Part shown: piece after piece, positions 7,961-47,883 of the stretch | How positions within the stretch are numbered: position 1 is the stretch's first letter | How the letters are laid out: every line of letters starts with the position of its first letter | NCBI RefSeq assembly: GCF_000027125.1 | Contig: NC_017626.1 | DNA from: Escherichia coli 042 | GTDB taxonomy: Bacteria; Pseudomonadota; Gammaproteobacteria; Enterobacterales; Enterobacteriaceae | Reading direction: 5' to 3' (one strand) | DNA: 64,000 nucleotides | The notes under the pieces: model-generated | What the model was told of the DNA's origin: nothing | What the model saw: only the letters and a program-made list of their open reading frames with translations | Database searches by the model: none | Made by a program: the position numbers and the translations under genes

Positions 7961-8392
7961 TTATTTGCCGCGCACCAGAGGTAAGTTTTCGCCAGCCCAG
8001 CCAGCAACGCCCTCTTTCAGCACGAATACTTGCGCAAAACCAGCTTTCGTCAGCGCGTTTGCAGGCTCCTGGCACTGCATGCCAGAACCGTCTACCACGA
8101 TAACCGGTTTGTCTTTGTGCTTCTCAAGCTCACCAACATTGTTGGCTTTGATTTCGCTCGGCAACAGGTTGATAGAACCTGCGATATGGCCTTTACGGAA
8201 GTCATCACGCTGACGTAAATCCACAACCACAGCGTCTTCTTTGTTGATCAGACGCGTAGCTTCACCACGAGTAATCACCTTCACTTTCGAGGTCAGGCTC
8301 TTAAACGTAGTCACAAGAACCGCCACCAGTAACGCGATCCAGGCGATACTCAGTATGGGATGACGGCCAACAAATTGCATAATTTCTTGCAT
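7961..8392 (-). CDS. yibN: Rhodanese-domain inner membrane protein
   Basis: N-terminal TM helix then rhodanese fold; start taken at MQEIMQF (143 aa). Confidence 0.85.
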
Positions 8393-8636: not shown

Positions 8637-10181
8637 ATGTCGGTTTCTAAAAAACCTATGGTACTGGTGATTCTGGATGGCTATGGCTATCGTGAAGAAC
8701 AGCAGGATAACGCCATTTTTAGTGCTAAAACCCCGGTAATGGATGCACTGTGGGCCAATCGTCCGCATACCCTGATCGACGCTTCCGGTCTGGAAGTTGG
8801 TCTGCCTGACCGTCAGATGGGTAACTCCGAAGTAGGTCACGTTAACCTGGGTGCCGGCCGCATCGTGTATCAGGACCTGACTCGTCTGGACGTTGAAATC
8901 AAAGATCGCGCTTTCTTCGCTAACCCGGTACTGACTGGCGCGGTAGATAAAGCGAAAAACGCAGGCAAAGCAGTTCACATTATGGGCCTGCTGTCCGCAG
9001 GCGGCGTACACAGCCACGAAGATCACATCATGGCGATGGTAGAACTGGCCGCTGAACGCGGCGCAGAAAAAATCTACCTGCACGCATTCCTTGACGGTCG
9101 CGACACTCCACCGCGCAGTGCTGAATCCTCGCTGAAAAAATTCGAAGAAAAATTTGCCGCGCTGGGCAAAGGCCGCGTAGCGTCCATCATTGGTCGTTAC
9201 TACGCCATGGACCGCGATAACCGTTGGGATCGCGTTGAAAAAGCTTATGACCTGCTAACTCTGGCGCAGGGTGAGTTCCAGGCCGACACCGCCGTTGCTG
9301 GTTTGCAGGCAGCTTATGCTCGCGACGAAAACGACGAATTCGTGAAAGCGACCGTTATTCGTGCAGAAGGTCAGCCAGACGCGGCAATGGAAGACGGCGA
9401 TGCGCTGATTTTCATGAACTTCCGTGCTGACCGCGCGCGTGAAATCACTCGTGCATTCGTGAACGCAGATTTCGATGGCTTCGCGCGTAAGAAAGTGGTT
9501 AACGTCGATTTCGTGATGCTGACCGAATACGCCGCTGACATCAAAACTGCGGTTGCTTACCCACCAGCGTCCCTGGTTAACACCTTCGGCGAGTGGATGG
9601 CGAAAAACGACAAAACTCAGTTGCGTATTTCCGAAACCGAAAAATATGCCCACGTTACTTTCTTCTTCAACGGTGGCGTAGAAGAGTCGTTCAAAGGCGA
9701 AGATCGCATTCTGATCAACTCACCGAAAGTGGCTACCTACGATCTGCAACCGGAAATGAGCTCCGCAGAGCTGACCGAAAAACTGGTTGCGGCAATCAAG
9801 AGCGGCAAATACGACACCATTATCTGTAACTATCCGAACGGCGACATGGTAGGTCACACCGGGGTGATGGAAGCGGCGGTTAAAGCGGTTGAAGCGCTGG
9901 ATCACTGCGTGGAAGAAGTCGCGAAAGCGGTTGAGTCCGTGGGTGGACAACTGCTGATCACCGCTGACCACGGTAACGCTGAACAGATGCGCGATCCGGC
10001 AACGGGTCAGGCACACACGGCACACACCAACCTGCCAGTTCCGCTGATTTACGTTGGTGATAAGAACGTGAAAGCGGTTGAAGGCGGCAAACTTTCTGAC
10101 ATCGCGCCGACCATGTTGTCGCTGATGGGTATGGAAATCCCGCAAGAGATGACTGGTAAGCCGCTGTTCATCGTGGAATAA
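8637..10181 (+). CDS. gpmM: 2,3-bisphosphoglycerate-independent phosphoglycerate mutase
   Basis: 514 aa from [20 protein letters not shown]; the longer ORF in the track starts upstream in frame. Confidence 0.93.
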
Positions 10182-39394: not shown

Positions 39395-39489
39395 CTGAAT
39401 AGATTGAGCCTAGCTCGACGGGGCGAAAAGCGGGAAGCCTTACCGCCTGGCTCAATCACAAAATAAGGCGCAGCGTAAAAGGTGACGCA

Positions 39490-41094: not shown

Positions 41095-41928
41095 ATGAAC
41101 ATCGAAAAAAGCAGATTAATTTCTGAGGCCGCCCCTCATCTGAACGCCTCTCTGGGCACAATTAACGGTAATGAATTTGCCGCAATTGTCCCGGTTATTC
41201 CTGGTCACATCGGTGGGCGTGAAACCAATATTGTTAGCGCAAAAGCGTTACACAAAGCGTTGGGCGTGGGAAAAGACTTCTCTACATGGATCACTGATCG
41301 CATCTCTGAATATGACTTCACCATTGGGCACGATTACTCAGTCCATAAAACAATTTCCCCAAATTTGGGGAAAAGCCCGAATGGCGCGGCTTACAGCAAG
41401 ATTAAGCAGTCTGGCAGACCCGGCAAAGACTATCTGTTAAGTGTCGGAATGGCGAAAGAACTGGCAATGATCGAACGCAATGATCAGGGTCGCGCTATCC
41501 GTCGTTATTTCATCCAGTGCGAGGAAGAATTACAGCGTAGCGTGCCTGAAATCGCCGCCCGCTATCGTCGCCAGCTAAAAGCCCGTATCAGTGCCGCAAA
41601 CAACTTTAAGCCAATGTGCGATGCGCTGAATATGGCCCGTGCCGAGCAGGGGAAAACGACGCAGCAACACCACTACACAAACGAGAGCAATATGATTTCT
41701 CGTATCGTTCTTGGAGGGCTAACTGCTAAGCAGTGGGCGCGGATAAATGGCTATTCTGGCGAACCTCGCGACCATATGAACGCAGAACAGCTTGAGCACC
41801 TCTCATATCTCGAAAGCACCAATATCACGTTAATTGATATGGGCATGGAATATGAGCAGCGCAAAGGAGAACTCACCCGCCTGTCGCAACGCTGGCTCGC
41901 CAAGCGTCTGGAGGCGGTCCATGTTTAA
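41095..41928 (+). CDS. Phage antirepressor-like protein (Ant/KilAC-like)
   Basis: 277 aa; N-terminal region resembles antirepressor-family proteins; assignment from memory only. Confidence 0.5.
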   Translation: MNIEKSRLISEAAPHLNASLGTINGNEFAAIVPVIPGHIGGRETNIVSAKALHKALGVGKDFSTWITDRISEYDFTIGHDYSVHKTISPNLGKSPNGAAYSKIKQSGRPGKDYLLSVGMAKELAMIERNDQGRAIRRYFIQCEEELQRSVPEIAARYRRQLKARISAANNFKPMCDALNMARAEQGKTTQQHHYTNESNMISRIVLGGLTAKQWARINGYSGEPRDHMNAEQLEHLSYLESTNITLIDMGMEYEQRKGELTRLSQRWLAKRLEAVHV

Positions 41929-42103
41929 GCCGACAGGAACACCACAACCTCAAAAACGCTACAAAGATGCCCACGGAGCACTCGTTACTGTCGAAAGCGT
42001 GTCTCACAACCGAGTGACGTTTTATCGCGACGGGTATCAATCGCCATGCGTACAACCGCTGGCGCGCTTCATGAAGGAGTTCGCGGAGGTTAACAAATGC
42101 TAA
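41921..42103 (+). CDS. Small hypothetical island protein
   Basis: 60 aa from MFKPTG; its ATG overlaps the stop of the upstream gene. Confidence 0.45.
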   Translation: MFKPTGTPQPQKRYKDAHGALVTVESVSHNRVTFYRDGYQSPCVQPLARFMKEFAEVNKC

Positions 42104-43164
42104 CCGTCCAGAAGAAGATATTTTCACTGGCTGGTATGTCGCCAAAATCCAGCAATATGACAGCAAAGTCTGGCATTAATACAGCAGATGCAAGCAAAGT
42201 TTATCATTTTCTGGTGGTAGGAGCGGATGCCTTAACTATGTCAGAAATTACGGTCGATGGTGTTAGCGTTGAGAAGGTCGGCGGCTGCGCCAGAGAATTT
42301 CTGGTCGTAGATGGCTTTCTCTGCTCGCGTAGTGACTCCACAAAAACCTTCGTCCACACGCGCGACGTTAACGAAATGAGCGCGATGTATTGTGCATCTG
42401 GTGCTTCCAATAGTGAGTTTTCGGAGTCCATAAAAAAGAGCTTGCCGTTATGCGGCAACACGGTTTATGGTTATAAGGCACCTCATAAAACGGGTGCCGG
42501 GATTGGCGTCCTGGTAAATCGAATGGCGACATATGACGCGCCGAGCGTCTTTTTTTATGTCGTAGGTCTGACTCACCCATTTTTTGGGCGTTGGTGTATA
42601 ATCCAGCGCCTTTGTCAATCAATGGTGGCTCAGGCAGGGGCTTCTTCGGAAGCGCCGGTATCCATTCGAGCCGGTTACGCCAACCCTGTCTGGGCTACCA
42701 CCAGCGAAATTGGCGTTTCCGGTGGTAGCGTTACATGCTATCGAATGGAGGCTGCCACATGCTGGCTACTACCCCTACCCAAAAACCGCAATTTATCTGG
42801 ATTATCGCCGCAGTTCGCCGCGATTGCCCGACAATTACCGCCAAAATTCATCATATTGCTGCCGAGTCTGAACGCGATGCTCGCCGTTCTCTGGTGCGCG
42901 ATCACGTCTGCTTTTTTGCTGGTCGTATCCGCATGGAGGTGGCACATGATTAAAACCTACGATGTGCATATGGATCCCCTCGAACGCACAAGCCAGATCA
43001 TCACACTGACAGAAGTGATTAACGACATTCTGGTGAGCAACTCTCCCTCACGAGACGAAAGACTGAAGGCGTTACTCGCGATATTGGATCTCGCCGTTCG
43101 TGACGTTCATTTCCTGCTGGAAGGTGGCGAAATGCCAGGAAAAACGGGGGCAACCAATGAATAA
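42097..43164 (+). CDS. Hypothetical island protein; gene boundaries uncertain, possibly two genes read through in one frame
   Basis: 355-codon open frame with an ATGCTAA start overlap; its middle is overlapped by a more gene-like ORF in another frame and an internal ATG at 42946 overlaps that ORF's stop. Confidence 0.35.
42759..42953 (+). CDS. Small protein, possibly Icd-like cell-division inhibitor family
   Basis: [22 protein letters not shown]... in an alternative frame inside the 355-codon ORF; resemblance to Icd-like proteins is from memory. Confidence 0.4.
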   Translation: MLATTPTQKPQFIWIIAAVRRDCPTITAKIHHIAAESERDARRSLVRDHVCFFAGRIRMEVAHD

Positions 43165-43351
43165 CTCAATTAATGCCCCTCGACTTACGTCCGCACTTCA
43201 ATTAATCGAGCAAGCAGCGGCTGTCCTGGTTGCTGTCAGTCTTTCGGCTGAAGAAATGGACGCTGCTGATGTCGTGGATGCGATTAAAGCGTGCTCATCT
43301 TTGGTTAACGATGCCCGTGCAGAGCTGGTAATTCTTGGGGGTGAAAAATGA
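43157..43351 (+). CDS. Small hypothetical island protein
   Basis: 64 aa from [10 protein letters not shown]; start overlaps the upstream stop. Confidence 0.45.
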   Translation: MNNSINAPRLTSALQLIEQAAAVLVAVSLSAEEMDAADVVDAIKACSSLVNDARAELVILGGEK

Positions 43352-44776: not shown

Positions 44777-45140
44777 AAATGCAGAAATGGCGCTTAGCTC
44801 CGCAATCGGAGAGCAGGTGGCAAAGATTGCTGGCGCTGTGTGGATTCATAACCTTCATTCTACTGGTGAAGAGAAAATGGCAATTCAGACGCCAGAGGGA
44901 CGCACCATTACTACATCTCTGAAGGCGTCAGATGTTTGTGATCTGATTTGCGCATTCATGTACCCAGCAATGAGGACTGTCCACGGCGATAAGTGGAAAC
45001 TTGCGACAACCGCTGAATTTGATATGTGGCTAAACAATGATGGCATGCTGACTGATTACGGAATAACCAAGTGGCAGATGCTGGTTAGCCATATCGCAAA
45101 CGCTATAGACCACGTGGGGTACGGTGATGCGAAACATTGA
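44769..45140 (+). CDS. Hypothetical island protein
   Basis: 123-aa ORF overlapping both neighbours. Confidence 0.5.
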   Translation: MRENAEMALSSAIGEQVAKIAGAVWIHNLHSTGEEKMAIQTPEGRTITTSLKASDVCDLICAFMYPAMRTVHGDKWKLATTAEFDMWLNNDGMLTDYGITKWQMLVSHIANAIDHVGYGDAKH

Positions 45141-47883
45141 TCTTATCCGCCAGGTTATCAGTGCGTCTGAAAACAACTGGCCTCATGTGCTGGGCTGCCT
45201 GAACATAAATGTCCCTGACTCTCCGCGCCGTCATGCTCCCTGCCCTGCATGTGGGGGCAAAGATCGATTCCGGTTCGATGACAACGGGCGCGGTAGCTTC
45301 ATCTGTAATCAGTGCGGCGCTGGTGATGGACTGGATTTAATTAAACGCGTAAATAACTGCGACACAACAGAGGCGGCGCTTCTTGCCGCTGATGTTCTGG
45401 GTATTGATTACCGGACAACGGAAACACCAGAAGCCACCAGCCAGAAACGGGAACAACTGGAAACCGAGCGCCAGCGACGCGAACAGGAGCGCCTGAAAAG
45501 GGCAGAGAAGGACGAACAACAAAGACGGGATACGTTTTCCCGTCAGTTTGATGACATGCGCAGAAAGGCTGTAAACGGCAAATCTGATTATCTGGTTGCG
45601 AAAGGGGTAGGTGATTTTACATTCCCCGTGTTGCCCGATGGATCTCTGTTGCTGGCGCTGGTGGATAAATCCGGCGCAGTAACAGCAGCACAGACTATTA
45701 CCTCACATGGTGAAAAAAGACTCCTGACAGGTTCAGCAAAGCGAGGGGCATATCACGCCATAAACGCACCAGAAACAACACAGAGCATCTTAATCGCAGA
45801 AGGGCTGGCAACGGCATTATCTGCCCATTTAATTCGTCCAGAGGCGCTGACAGTGGCGGCGATTGATGCCGGGAACCTGTTATATGTCGCCCAGGTACTG
45901 CGGGATAAATTTCCTTCAGCACAAATCATCATTGCTGCGGATAACGACCACAGCGAAGGAAGACAAAACACGGGGAGAATAGCAGCAGAAAAAGCAGCTT
46001 TATCTGTTTCTGGATGGGTGGCATTACCCCCGACAGATCACAAAGCAGACTGGAATGATTACCACCAAAAACACGGCATTAAATGCGCCACAGAAGCGTT
46101 CAATAAGTCAATGTACCAACCACAGGGTAATGGCGTGAAACAGGAGCCACAGACCATTGAGGGAAGCGATTTTAAGGTTATGGATACCGACCCACTGAAA
46201 CCAAGAATAGAAAGCCGCGAGGATGGTATTTATTGGGTATCTCCGAGAGCTGACAGCCAGAGTGGAGAAATCATCAATAACGAAAGCTGGTTATGTTCTC
46301 CGTTAAGCGTTATCGGTACTGGCAGAGACGATAAAGACCAGTATCTCATTCTTCGCTGGCTGTCGTTTGGTTCTGAAACGCCGACAACCGCTGCCATTCC
46401 ACTGGCTGATATTGGTGAACGTGAAGGATGGCGCACACTTAAAGCTGGTGGGGTAAATGTCACGACCAAAAGCAGCCTCAGAGCAATACTGGCAGACTGG
46501 CTACAACGCAGTGGCTCTCGTGAATTGTGGCGTGTTGCTCATGCCACTGGCTGGCAATGCGGAGCGTACATCATGCCTGATGGGGAAATCATCGGAACAC
46601 CTGAAAATCCTGTGCTGTTCAGCGGGAGAAGCTCAGCCGCAGCCGGATATACCGTCTCAGGGAGCGCGAAAAGCTGGCGTGATAACGTGGCGCGTCTGGC
46701 CTTTGGTAACTATTCAATGATGACCGGGATCGGCGCAGCACTGGCAGCGCCATTGATTGGGCTGGTGGGCGCTGACGGGTTCGGCATTCATTTCTATGAG
46801 CAGTCGAGCGCAGGTAAGACCACCACGGCAAACGTGGCGAGCAGCTTATACGGCAACCCTGATTTACTGCGGCTGACGTGGTACGGAACCGCGCTGGGGC
46901 TGGCAAATGAGGCCGCCGCCCACAATGACGGACTAATGCCGCTTGATGAAGTTGGTCAGGGCGCTGATCCTGTCAGCGTTTCACAGTCTGCCTATGCGTT
47001 ATTTAACGGTGTAGGGAAACTGCAAGGCGCTAAAGATGGTGGAAACCGGGATCTAAAACGCTGGCGTACAGTGGCAATCAGCACCGGAGAAATGGATTTA
47101 GAAACATTTATCGCTACTTCCGGGCGAAAAACCAAAGCCGGGCAACTGGTGCGACTGCTGAATATTCCGTTGAGTAAAGCAGTACGCTTTCACGATTACC
47201 AGAACGGAAAACAGCACGCAGACGCACTGAAAGACGCTTACCAGCATCACCACGGCGCAGCCGGGCGTGAGTGGATTAAATGGCTGGCAGACCACCAGCA
47301 ACAGGCAATTAAAACTGTTCGTGACTGCGAAAGCAGATGGAGAAGTCTGATCCCATCCGATTATGGTGAGCAGGTTCACCGTGTAGCCGCGCGATTTGCC
47401 ATTCTGGAGGCCGCATTGCTGTTAGGCGAGGTTGTAACAGGCTGGGATGCTCAGACATGCCGTGATGCGATACAGCACAGCTATAACGCATGGTTGCGCG
47501 AGTTCGGCACAGGTAACAAAGAACATCAGCAGATTATTGAACAAACGGAGGCATTTCTTAATGCCTATGGGCTTAGCCGTTTTGCACCATTTCCATACAG
47601 CCCGGCAGATTTGCCCATCAAAGATTTAGCCGGATACCGTCAGCGTGGAGAACATGACGAAAGCCCAATGATTTTCTACACATTCCCGGCCACATTTGAA
47701 AAGGAGATCGCATGTGGTTTCAACGCAAAACAGTTTGCTGAAGTGTTGAAAAAAGCCGGGATGCTAACCCCACCAAACAGCGGTCGTGGATACCAAAGAA
47801 AATCACCACGTATTCAGGGACGACAAATAAACGTTTATGTACTCAATTACCAGCCAGGAGATTACAACTCATCTGAAGAATGA
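45124..47883 (+). CDS. Primase / helicase replication protein (P4 alpha-like)
   Basis: 919 aa: N-terminal zinc-binding element (CPACGGKDRFRFDD...CNQCG), a central acidic primase-like region, and a C-terminal P-loop (SSAGKTTTANV). Confidence 0.85.
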   Translation: MMRNIDLIRQVISASENNWPHVLGCLNINVPDSPRRHAPCPACGGKDRFRFDDNGRGSFICNQCGAGDGLDLIKRVNNCDTTEAALLAADVLGIDYRTTETPEATSQKREQLETERQRREQERLKRAEKDEQQRRDTFSRQFDDMRRKAVNGKSDYLVAKGVGDFTFPVLPDGSLLLALVDKSGAVTAAQTITSHGEKRLLTGSAKRGAYHAINAPETTQSILIAEGLATALSAHLIRPEALTVAAIDAGNLLYVAQVLRDKFPSAQIIIAADNDHSEGRQNTGRIAAEKAALSVSGWVALPPTDHKADWNDYHQKHGIKCATEAFNKSMYQPQGNGVKQEPQTIEGSDFKVMDTDPLKPRIESREDGIYWVSPRADSQSGEIINNESWLCSPLSVIGTGRDDKDQYLILRWLSFGSETPTTAAIPLADIGEREGWRTLKAGGVNVTTKSSLRAILADWLQRSGSRELWRVAHATGWQCGAYIMPDGEIIGTPENPVLFSGRSSAAAGYTVSGSAKSWRDNVARLAFGNYSMMTGIGAALAAPLIGLVGADGFGIHFYEQSSAGKTTTANVASSLYGNPDLLRLTWYGTALGLANEAAAHNDGLMPLDEVGQGADPVSVSQSAYALFNGVGKLQGAKDGGNRDLKRWRTVAISTGEMDLETFIATSGRKTKAGQLVRLLNIPLSKAVRFHDYQNGKQHADALKDAYQHHHGAAGREWIKWLADHQQQAIKTVRDCESRWRSLIPSDYGEQVHRVAARFAILEAALLLGEVVTGWDAQTCRDAIQHSYNAWLREFGTGNKEHQQIIEQTEAFLNAYGLSRFAPFPYSPADLPIKDLAGYRQRGEHDESPMIFYTFPATFEKEIACGFNAKQFAEVLKKAGMLTPPNSGRGYQRKSPRIQGRQINVYVLNYQPGDYNSSEE

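Follow-up and report, generated by a model that had tools for sequence, protein, structure and literature searches.

Comparative evidence for an eta-like reading frame kept open, without conservation of its product, across an RNA immunity cassette in an Escherichia coli island

We analyzed a 64,000-nucleotide (nt) stretch of the genome of Escherichia coli 042 (NCBI RefSeq assembly GCF_000027125.1, contig NC_017626.1), which is referred to here as the window and to which coordinates refer unless another genome is named. The window contains an open reading frame (ORF) of 355 codons, called "ash family protein" by the NCBI Prokaryotic Genome Annotation Pipeline (PGAP), which according to the sequence and the ORF list runs uninterrupted from the ATG at 42097 to the TAA at 43162-43164. 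Within this long frame lie an isrK-family RNA, a C4/CI-family antisense RNA, an icd gene encoding an Icd/Kil-like protein in another frame, and a separate gene of 72 codons (Table 1). Comparison of the sequences of related loci showed that the long frame is kept open by selection, while its amino acid sequence is not conserved. We consider it probable that the long frame is the counterpart of the eta gene of P4 in an EcCIMP1-like satellite island and that it acts as a translational bridge over the immunity switch. The original prediction, made from the letters of the window, had described the 355-codon frame and the ATGCTAA overlap at its start as they are, and had offered three explanations for its middle part: a stretch open by chance between two genes, the site of a lost stop codon, or a real dual-coding region.

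Dinucleotide shuffling was used to estimate how often a frame of this kind stays open. None of 5,000 shuffles lacked an in-frame stop over the whole long frame. The share of stop-free shuffles was 0.08% for codons 1-114, 0.4% for the 160 codons in the middle (42466-42945), and 11% when the icd overlap was taken alone. Based on the values for the whole frame and for its middle, the long frame is no chance event. Related loci were gathered through the Icd-like protein alone, regardless of whether a long ORF had been annotated. The resulting 92 loci comprise 10 from species-representative genomes (scanned with a single Icd protein), 80 from viral contigs (alignment-based scan), the window, and P4. 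In 90 of the 92 loci, the frame with the register of the long frame relative to C4 had no stop from a point 5' of the internal promoter to the end of icd or beyond, and the loci with an open frame span many genera of the Enterobacteriaceae. Among 62 distinct cassettes, 61 were stop-free in the long frame and none was stop-free in either of the other frames, which contained means of 3.0 and 5.4 stops. The distance from isrK to C4 was 98, 101, 125, 128, 131, 140, or 185 nt, values that are all equal modulo 3. The single exception, a spacing of 139 nt and thus one base short, was found in L069, one of the two loci with a broken frame, in which the frame is truncated; in the other (L086), icd is cut to 40 codons. 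As the sole disrupted loci, these two may be decaying copies or sequencing errors.

Openness extends into sequence that is not shared between the loci. The long frame began upstream of the internal promoter in every case examined, and the region 5' of the promoter, from here on referred to as the filler, fell into 10 unrelated homology groups with lengths of 16-139 codons. In this region, the median open length was 104 codons in the long frame versus 2 and 8 codons in the others. In nearly all loci, the first ATG overlapped the stop codon of the upstream gene (ATGA or ATGnnTAA, with a Shine-Dalgarno sequence), whatever that upstream gene was.

These data bear on the possibility that chance or a lost stop opened a stretch between two or three real genes, the 355-amino-acid (aa) call being an annotation artefact. 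PGAP does split the same intact frame in another genome into a "pseudo" ash gene and an Icd-like gene, and the icd overlap by itself is open often enough in shuffles to fit this explanation. The shuffles of the whole frame and of its middle, the open loci in many genera with their frame-preserving indels, the stops that are always present in the other two frames, and a P1-like cassette without open flanks (see below) all argue against it. Nor are the 92 loci near-clonal, since they include 44 distinct C4 sequences besides the unrelated filler groups. We therefore regard it as extremely improbable. The first two explanations in the original prediction do not survive the comparison: a region open by chance is contradicted, and the site of a lost stop is excluded, by the open loci, the frame-preserving spacers, and the coupled starts. 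The arrangement is also not simply one of two genes, because the stretch between them holds an RNA immunity cassette that has a promoter and a terminator of its own, and the 5' third is variable filler.

The overlap with icd provided a second line of evidence. The icd ORF is open from 42735 to 42953, and its likely start, the ATG at 42759, is located 7 nt after a GGAGG (42747-42751). The product scored 71.3 bits against the NCBIfam Icd-like model NF033153 (cutoff, 25), and icd and the long frame form a true two-frame overlap of 64 codons. In the icd frame, the ratio of nonsynonymous to synonymous differences (pN/pS) was 0.26-0.29 in both classes of frame relation described below, indicating purifying selection, while over the same stretch the long frame in the +1 position had a pN/pS of ~1.8 in both classes. 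The embedded 64-aa ORF is thus a real gene, as had been suspected, and the comparison of homologues that had been proposed for deciding which of the overlapping frames is conserved at the protein level points to the icd frame and not to the long frame. Based on homology to P4 Kil, the Icd-like product would inhibit cell division or kill the cell.

Only two relations between icd and the long frame were found, in frame or +1, and +2 never occurred. The out-of-frame arrangement of the window is shared by about half of the loci, and the other half are P4-like. A difference of one base in the distance from GGAGG to ATG (8 or 7 nt) switches between the two relations, and at least 11 switches were counted on a neighbor-joining tree of icd. 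Over icd, the +1 frame was stop-free in all 39 distinct sequences in which it serves as the long frame, as opposed to 8 of the 31 in which it does not. After clustering, all 15 lineages below 90% identity in the +1 class had a stop-free icd overlap, and the product of their chance probabilities under synonymous randomization was 9e-6. As an example, a leucine codon that is CTT in a +1-class locus is TTA or CTA in in-frame loci, which gives TAA in the +1 frame. Of the explanations originally offered, a real dual-coding region comes closest.

The region from 42442 to 42751 forms, as judged from profile matches and base pairing, an RNA immunity cassette of the P1 C4/P4 CI type. It begins with a putative promoter consisting of a -35 TTGCCG (42442-42447), an 18-nt spacer, and a -10 TATGGT (42466-42471), with a predicted start at ~42478. 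A consensus promoter scan did not flag this promoter (8 of 12 matches); the block AAAAAAGGGCTTGCC...TATGGT is conserved in 53 distinct sequences, and the annotated -10 of P4 occupies the equivalent place before the start of the isrK model. The isrK model of Rfam (RF01394) matched at 42478-42555 with 67.1 bits (gathering score, 50), and the 3' end of this RNA is an intrinsic terminator, detected by a terminator scan, with a stem at 42535-42549 followed by seven T at 42550-42556. The C4 model (RF01695) matched over model positions 1-87 with 79.5 bits (gathering score, 45). Over 44 distinct C4 sequences, 99.6% of cells were paired and 16 of 27 pairs had changed on both sides; none of 500 shuffles matched the observed values, and slid controls were 32-52% paired. 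While the two RNA genes, the terminator, and the internal promoter had been missed by the original prediction, the features that it did list were confirmed.

The C4 loop a' (UCCAUUCGA, 42661-42669) and the single-stranded element b' (ACGCCAA, 42677-42683) each have exact complements at two places, one within isrK (a1, 42519-42526; b1, 42503-42509) and one downstream of C4 (a2 and b2). The a2 target overlaps the Shine-Dalgarno sequence of icd. Loop and targets covary: exact 7-nt b1 and b2 complements were present in 28 of 28 distinct loop combinations, and an a2 complement of 8-10 nt ending 9-11 nt before the icd ATG was present in 27 of them, the remaining one having 5 nt. The a1 copy was more variable, with 7-9 nt in 16 and 4-5 nt in 12 of the 28 combinations. 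Folding of the whole-length RNA duplex of C4 versus its flanks was uninformative, as the energies were within the range of shuffles. For C4 of P1/P7 and CI of P4, processing by RNase P from a longer transcript and trans-acting immunity are described in PMC5499578.

A hairpin is located between the isrK terminator and C4 at 42588-42609 (stem GCGTTGG/CCAGCGC, loop TGTATAAT). Its stem shows compensatory changes in the related loci with the 140-nt spacing, and its loop reads as a perfect -10 hexamer. It may be an RNA processing signal or a second promoter, like P51b in P1.

Table 1. Features in and around the long frame
Feature	Coordinates	Strand	Basis and remarks
Upstream DUF4222 gene	41921..42103	+	PGAP annotation of identical genome; sequence
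Long read-through frame, probable counterpart of P4 eta	42097..43164	+	355 codons; PGAP name "ash family protein"
Variable 5' filler of long frame	42097..42441	+	Not homologous between lineages (protein alignment); weakly constrained
Fragment of P22-like small-terminase gene (gene 3), antisense to long frame	42245..42351	-	~87% identity to P22 gene 3
Putative internal promoter, equivalent to P4 PLE and PisrK	42442..42471	+	Conservation and positional homology with P4
isrK-family RNA (P4 seqA-region leader)	42478..42556	+	Rfam RF01394, terminator scan, complementarity
C4/CI-family antisense immunity RNA	42618..42705	+	Rfam RF01695
Downstream C4 targets	42710..42751	+	Exact-complement search; b2 TTGGCGT, 42710-42716; a2 TCGAATGGA, 42741-42749
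icd, Icd/Kil-like gene	42759..42953	+	64 aa, one base behind long frame; NCBIfam NF033153
Separate 72-codon gene	42946..43164	+	ATG overlaps icd stop (ATGATTAA); in frame with long ORF
Next operon gene	43157..43351	+	ATG overlaps long-frame stop (ATGAATAA); PGAP, sequence

We next consider the protein that the long frame would encode. Phage_ASH (PF10554) is the sole Pfam domain of the 355-aa product, and its match (residues 124-232, nt 42466-42792, E 5.7e-30) coincides exactly with the translated promoter-isrK-C4-target region. Likewise, the translated RNA cassette gave matches to PHROGs 6928, 3960, 821, and 995, whose names are those of repressors or regulators. Over this cassette, the long frame had a pN/pS of 0.93, and its variable sites showed no excess at third positions. 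The C-terminal third of the product changes completely with the frame relation to icd. AlphaFold, run with a 16-sequence alignment, gave a mean predicted local distance difference test (pLDDT) score of 32 and no usable model; values were 21-26 over the filler, and values above 50 were obtained solely in the part belonging to the downstream 72-codon gene. On these sequence data, what is conserved in the long frame is its openness and not a protein; the exception is the final 72 codons, a gene of their own. A conserved single 355-aa protein with variation at synonymous sites only, the outcome named beforehand as speaking against a composite frame, was not what the homologues showed: the open frame is conserved and its amino acids are not.

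These observations have to be weighed against the alternative that a genuine Ash protein exists, such as a regulator, whose coding sequence merely hosts RNA genes and whose frame is kept because the protein is needed. The conservation of the frame, its coupling to the upstream gene, and the matches to PF10554 and to several repressor or regulator PHROG families are what one would expect of such a protein, as are a pN/pS in the filler that is the lowest of the three frames and the fusion of the domain to AntA or terminase domains in some relatives. This alternative has difficulty accounting for the pN/pS of 0.93 and missing third-position excess across the very region matched by Pfam, for a C-terminal third that switches with the icd relation, for an N-terminal third that is not homologous between lineages, and for the absence of a confident predicted fold. 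The family names, moreover, trace to an old "ash/cI" ORF of P4, in which the immunity factor is the CI RNA according to titles cited in PMC10111431 and PMC5499578. We consider a genuine Ash protein unlikely. Older P4 records name part of the eta frame "put. ash gene" or "cI gene product," and the Pfam name Phage_ASH goes back to that old ash ORF call. RefSeq still calls the P4 frame over the CI RNA (L004, NC_001609, 8168-8584) "transcriptional repressor, cI gene product." The repressor and regulator names in RefSeq and PHROGs appear to be inherited from an interpretation of P4 immunity that preceded the recognition of the RNA.

In some relatives (P0009, P0012, and P0037; L014, L088, and L091), AntA, the large terminase subunit, or a frame of 470-650 codons is joined in frame to the Ash region. 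Besides forming a separate, coupled frame, the bridge can therefore also extend the upstream gene.

The openness could also be a passive by-product of constraint on icd and on the RNA, whose helices are G+C rich, without any selection on translation. Both the RNA and the icd sequences are strongly conserved, and within C4 the same frame is open even in a P1-like phage, as this explanation would have it. That phage, RCS47 (L098), carries isrK-like and C4 RNAs at 1818-2100, directly after pacB and heading the immI operon. Stops at 1924 and 2062, one on either side of C4 and close to it, interrupt its equivalent of the long frame, and so the flanks are not kept open by the RNA sequences alone. 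Constraint on RNA and icd also leaves unexplained the open fillers, which are unrelated to one another, the start/stop overlaps, the spacers that differ by multiples of three, the missing +2 relation, and the difference in stop-free +1 frames between loci that use this frame and loci that do not. A passive by-product is, in our assessment, very unlikely. From the sequences compared, the read-through frame appears to be specific to cassettes that are embedded within an operon.

The window cassette is embedded in such an operon. In an identical E. coli genome, the region is located in an island between yicC and dinD, in which genes for an integrase, alpA, an antA/antB gene, the DUF4222 gene, "ash," small overlapping genes, and a TOPRIM/DUF927 primase are accompanied by genes for DUF2824, P22-type ejection proteins, PerC, and a Doc toxin. 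The island resembles EcCIMP1 as outlined in PMC11773190. The primase is annotated by PGAP at 45127-47883, in a frame that is open from 45124. Between 40448 and 47883, nearly every gene from alpA to the primase starts in or just after the preceding stop codon (ATGA, ATGnnTAA, or gaps of ~10-12 nt), and the operon looks built for uninterrupted ribosome traffic. Without the long frame, the gene chain would contain an untranslated gap of ~650 nt. The ATG of the long frame at 42097, which is 381 nt upstream of the isrK start, shares the sequence ATGCTAA with the DUF4222 stop codon (TAA, 42101-42103) and is preceded by a GGAGG 7 nt on its 5' side; this overlap of stop and start suggests translational coupling. 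Upstream of this gene chain, the Rfam int-alpA RNA motif (60.6 bits) was found at 39403-39469, between the integrase gene and the next ORF, and also in L011. This motif may be linked to an upstream promoter that would feed the long frame.

How such a frame could work is suggested by P4. In the account of Forti et al. (1999) given in PMC10111431, a constitutive promoter, seqA, and CI are located within eta; ribosomes read eta only on transcripts from a late promoter further upstream, with coupling to the preceding gene; and this translation prevents termination. By analogy, the most likely role of the long frame is that its translation would prevent termination, for which openness without protein conservation provides comparative support, and the product itself is probably irrelevant. 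In the quiescent island, the internal promoter alone would fire, giving transcripts that lack the start of the long frame and would hence be untranslated; C4 would pair with the a and b sites and block icd translation, and transcription would end before the replication genes. Upon induction, transcripts would arrive from further upstream, and ribosomes finishing DUF4222 would restart at the ATG at 42097 and traverse the promoter, the terminator, C4 and its targets, icd in the other frame, and then the next gene. By keeping C4 and Rho off the RNA, these ribosomes would let operon expression reach the primase in spite of the immunity RNA.

Several points weigh against this interpretation. We infer translation of the long frame, the internal transcription start, C4 processing, and Rho dependence from homology with P4. 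The intrinsic terminator of isrK sits inside the long frame, and its suppression by ribosomes is presumed. The related loci are not independent, so the statistics on stop avoidance depend on the clustering at 90% identity and on a neighbor-joining tree that recombination may have distorted. Finally, the filler has a weak coding-like signal (pN/pS of 0.45 in the long frame, with second codon positions depleted), and the peptide that it encodes may have some role. Searches of NCBIfam and PHROGs gave no match for the filler or for the 72-aa downstream protein.

Part of the filler has a different origin. The gene 3 fragment that lies antisense to the long frame ends in a 22-bp copy of a pac site (42330-42351), which matches the annotated P22 pac site at 16 of 22 positions; this part of the filler "protein" is therefore a mere antisense of another gene. 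The window 22-mer is present exactly (22/22), in 111 nt of 93.7% identity and at the same position in gene 3, in three P22-like IMG/VR contigs that have neither C4 nor isrK. In one of them (L105), the ORFs around the pac match score as the small and large terminase subunits. No named phage with the exact pac variant of the island was found in the GenBank phage set. On sequence grounds, 42330-42351 is a candidate for a captured pac site of an island without terminase genes. If functional, the pac-like fragment could explain how islands of the EcCIMP1 type hijack P22-like helpers; the packaging mechanism of the related island EcCIMP1 is stated in PMC11773190 to be unknown.

Tentatively, these lines can be joined in a broader proposal that we rate as possible and somewhat short of probable. 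Across P4-like and EcCIMP1-like satellites there would be a sequence-independent translational bridge, in which selection acts only on openness and on coupling to the upstream gene; a one-base change in the spacer would flip it between two registers relative to the toxin gene, whose alternative frame is stop-free only when used; Pfam Ash and several repressor or regulator PHROGs would be translated RNA genes; and the filler would have captured a pac site of the helper. If true, this proposal would explain the packaging of terminase-less islands of the EcCIMP1 type.

The 3' end of the long frame coincides with the 72-codon gene. This gene had a pN/pS of 0.18, and homologues independent of the long ORF were found in L029 and L066, in which they are out of frame with it or distant from it; in loci whose long ORF ends at the icd stop, the homologues are likewise separate genes. 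The ATG at 42946 thus begins a separate gene, as had been proposed, and the gene happens to share the register of the long frame.

In E. coli SCU-316 (L001), PGAP reports a single "ash family protein," and the Icd-like gene is hidden. In STEC383 (L002), the same intact 355-codon frame is reported as a "pseudo" ash gene together with an Icd-like gene. On account of the "pseudo" label, STEC383 was considered as a relative with a broken frame and was rejected because the alignment shows an intact frame. The isrK and C4 RNAs are annotated in neither record. Depending on the genome, annotation pipelines thus conceal the Icd-like toxin gene or label the long frame a pseudogene, and the conserved part of the "ash family protein" corresponds to an RNA immunity switch. 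More generally, the region illustrates, in a clean comparative setting, selection for the translation of a frame and not for what it encodes, together with a two-frame overlap with protein-level selection on one frame only.

Among known systems, the closest is P4. In the P4 genome, the isrK model matched at 8692-8615 and the C4 model at 8507-8420, both inside one open frame. This frame runs for 197 codons from the ATG at 8761, which overlaps the stop codon of the alpA-like orf88, and an internal ATG at 8365 begins a frame of 65 codons; we take these lengths to be those of Eta and Kil. P4 Kil scored 76 bits against the NCBIfam Icd-like model and was 44% identical to the Icd-like protein of the window. 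In a BLASTP comparison, P4 Eta aligned with residues 116-220 of the long-frame product (40% identity, E 5e-19), and the alignment stops exactly where the two frames part. As presented in PMC10111431, the P4 immunity region contains nested eta and kil, the CI RNA, seqA/seqC, and the promoters PLE and PLL; P4 Kil is a truncated Eta (Forti et al. 1999, cited there), and homologues of CI and seqA inside satellite genes are already noted in that paper.

The window shares with P4 the RNAs of the isrK and C4 models inside a long frame with equal register relative to C4, a start of this frame at the stop codon of the upstream gene and 5' of the internal promoter, an Icd-like toxin gene at the end of the region, and an operon ending in a primase gene. 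As far as sequence can tell, the profile match, the nested promoter, leader, and CI-type RNA, and the coupled start upstream of the promoter would place the long frame with the eta type; a toxin gene nested in the same frame was not found, since icd of the window is out of frame. The differences are that P4 kil is the in-frame 3' end of eta (its last 65 codons), while icd here is one base out of frame; that the frame here continues through the next gene (355 versus 197 codons); that the 5' filler here is longer and unrelated and contains the pac-like fragment; and that the upstream partner is the DUF4222 gene and not the alpA-like orf88.

The immI region of P1/P7 (c4 RNA, icd, and ant) resembles the window in having a C4-family RNA with two recognition elements and with targets before and after it, of which the downstream copy covers the icd ribosome-binding site. 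In P1, however, an antirepressor gene is located downstream, whereas here replication genes follow. P1-like RCS47 differs in that it has no read-through frame, stops flank C4, and the cassette follows pacB. The isrK-orf45-anrP region of Gifsy-1 in Salmonella (PMC4825925) is similar in that isrK with a leaky intrinsic terminator is followed by a region of C4-like processed RNA, which is also translated (orf45) with conserved nucleotides and variable amino acids, and orf45 is translationally coupled to the next gene by an AUGA overlap. The translated frame in Gifsy-1 is short, begins 3' of isrK, and functions in anrP activation (PMC4825925), whereas the long frame here enters from the upstream genes and spans the whole cassette.

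With regard to the pac-like fragment, phage-inducible chromosomal islands capture packaging sites of their helpers, as in the capture of cos sites by E. coli islands. The likeness is that an island without terminase genes would carry a copy of a sequence recognized by the helper terminase; the difference, as far as the fragment can be read from its sequence, is that the candidate here is of the P22 pac type and is an antisense small-terminase fragment inside a frame that would be translated. We know of no earlier description of two interchangeable registers or of a pac-like insert. The eta/kil/CI arrangement is of a known kind, from which the out-of-frame toxin gene and the run-on into the next gene differ here. 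With this comparison, a large family of islands in the Enterobacteriaceae would come under the mechanism described for P4 eta, and in-frame nesting of kil is not essential to it.

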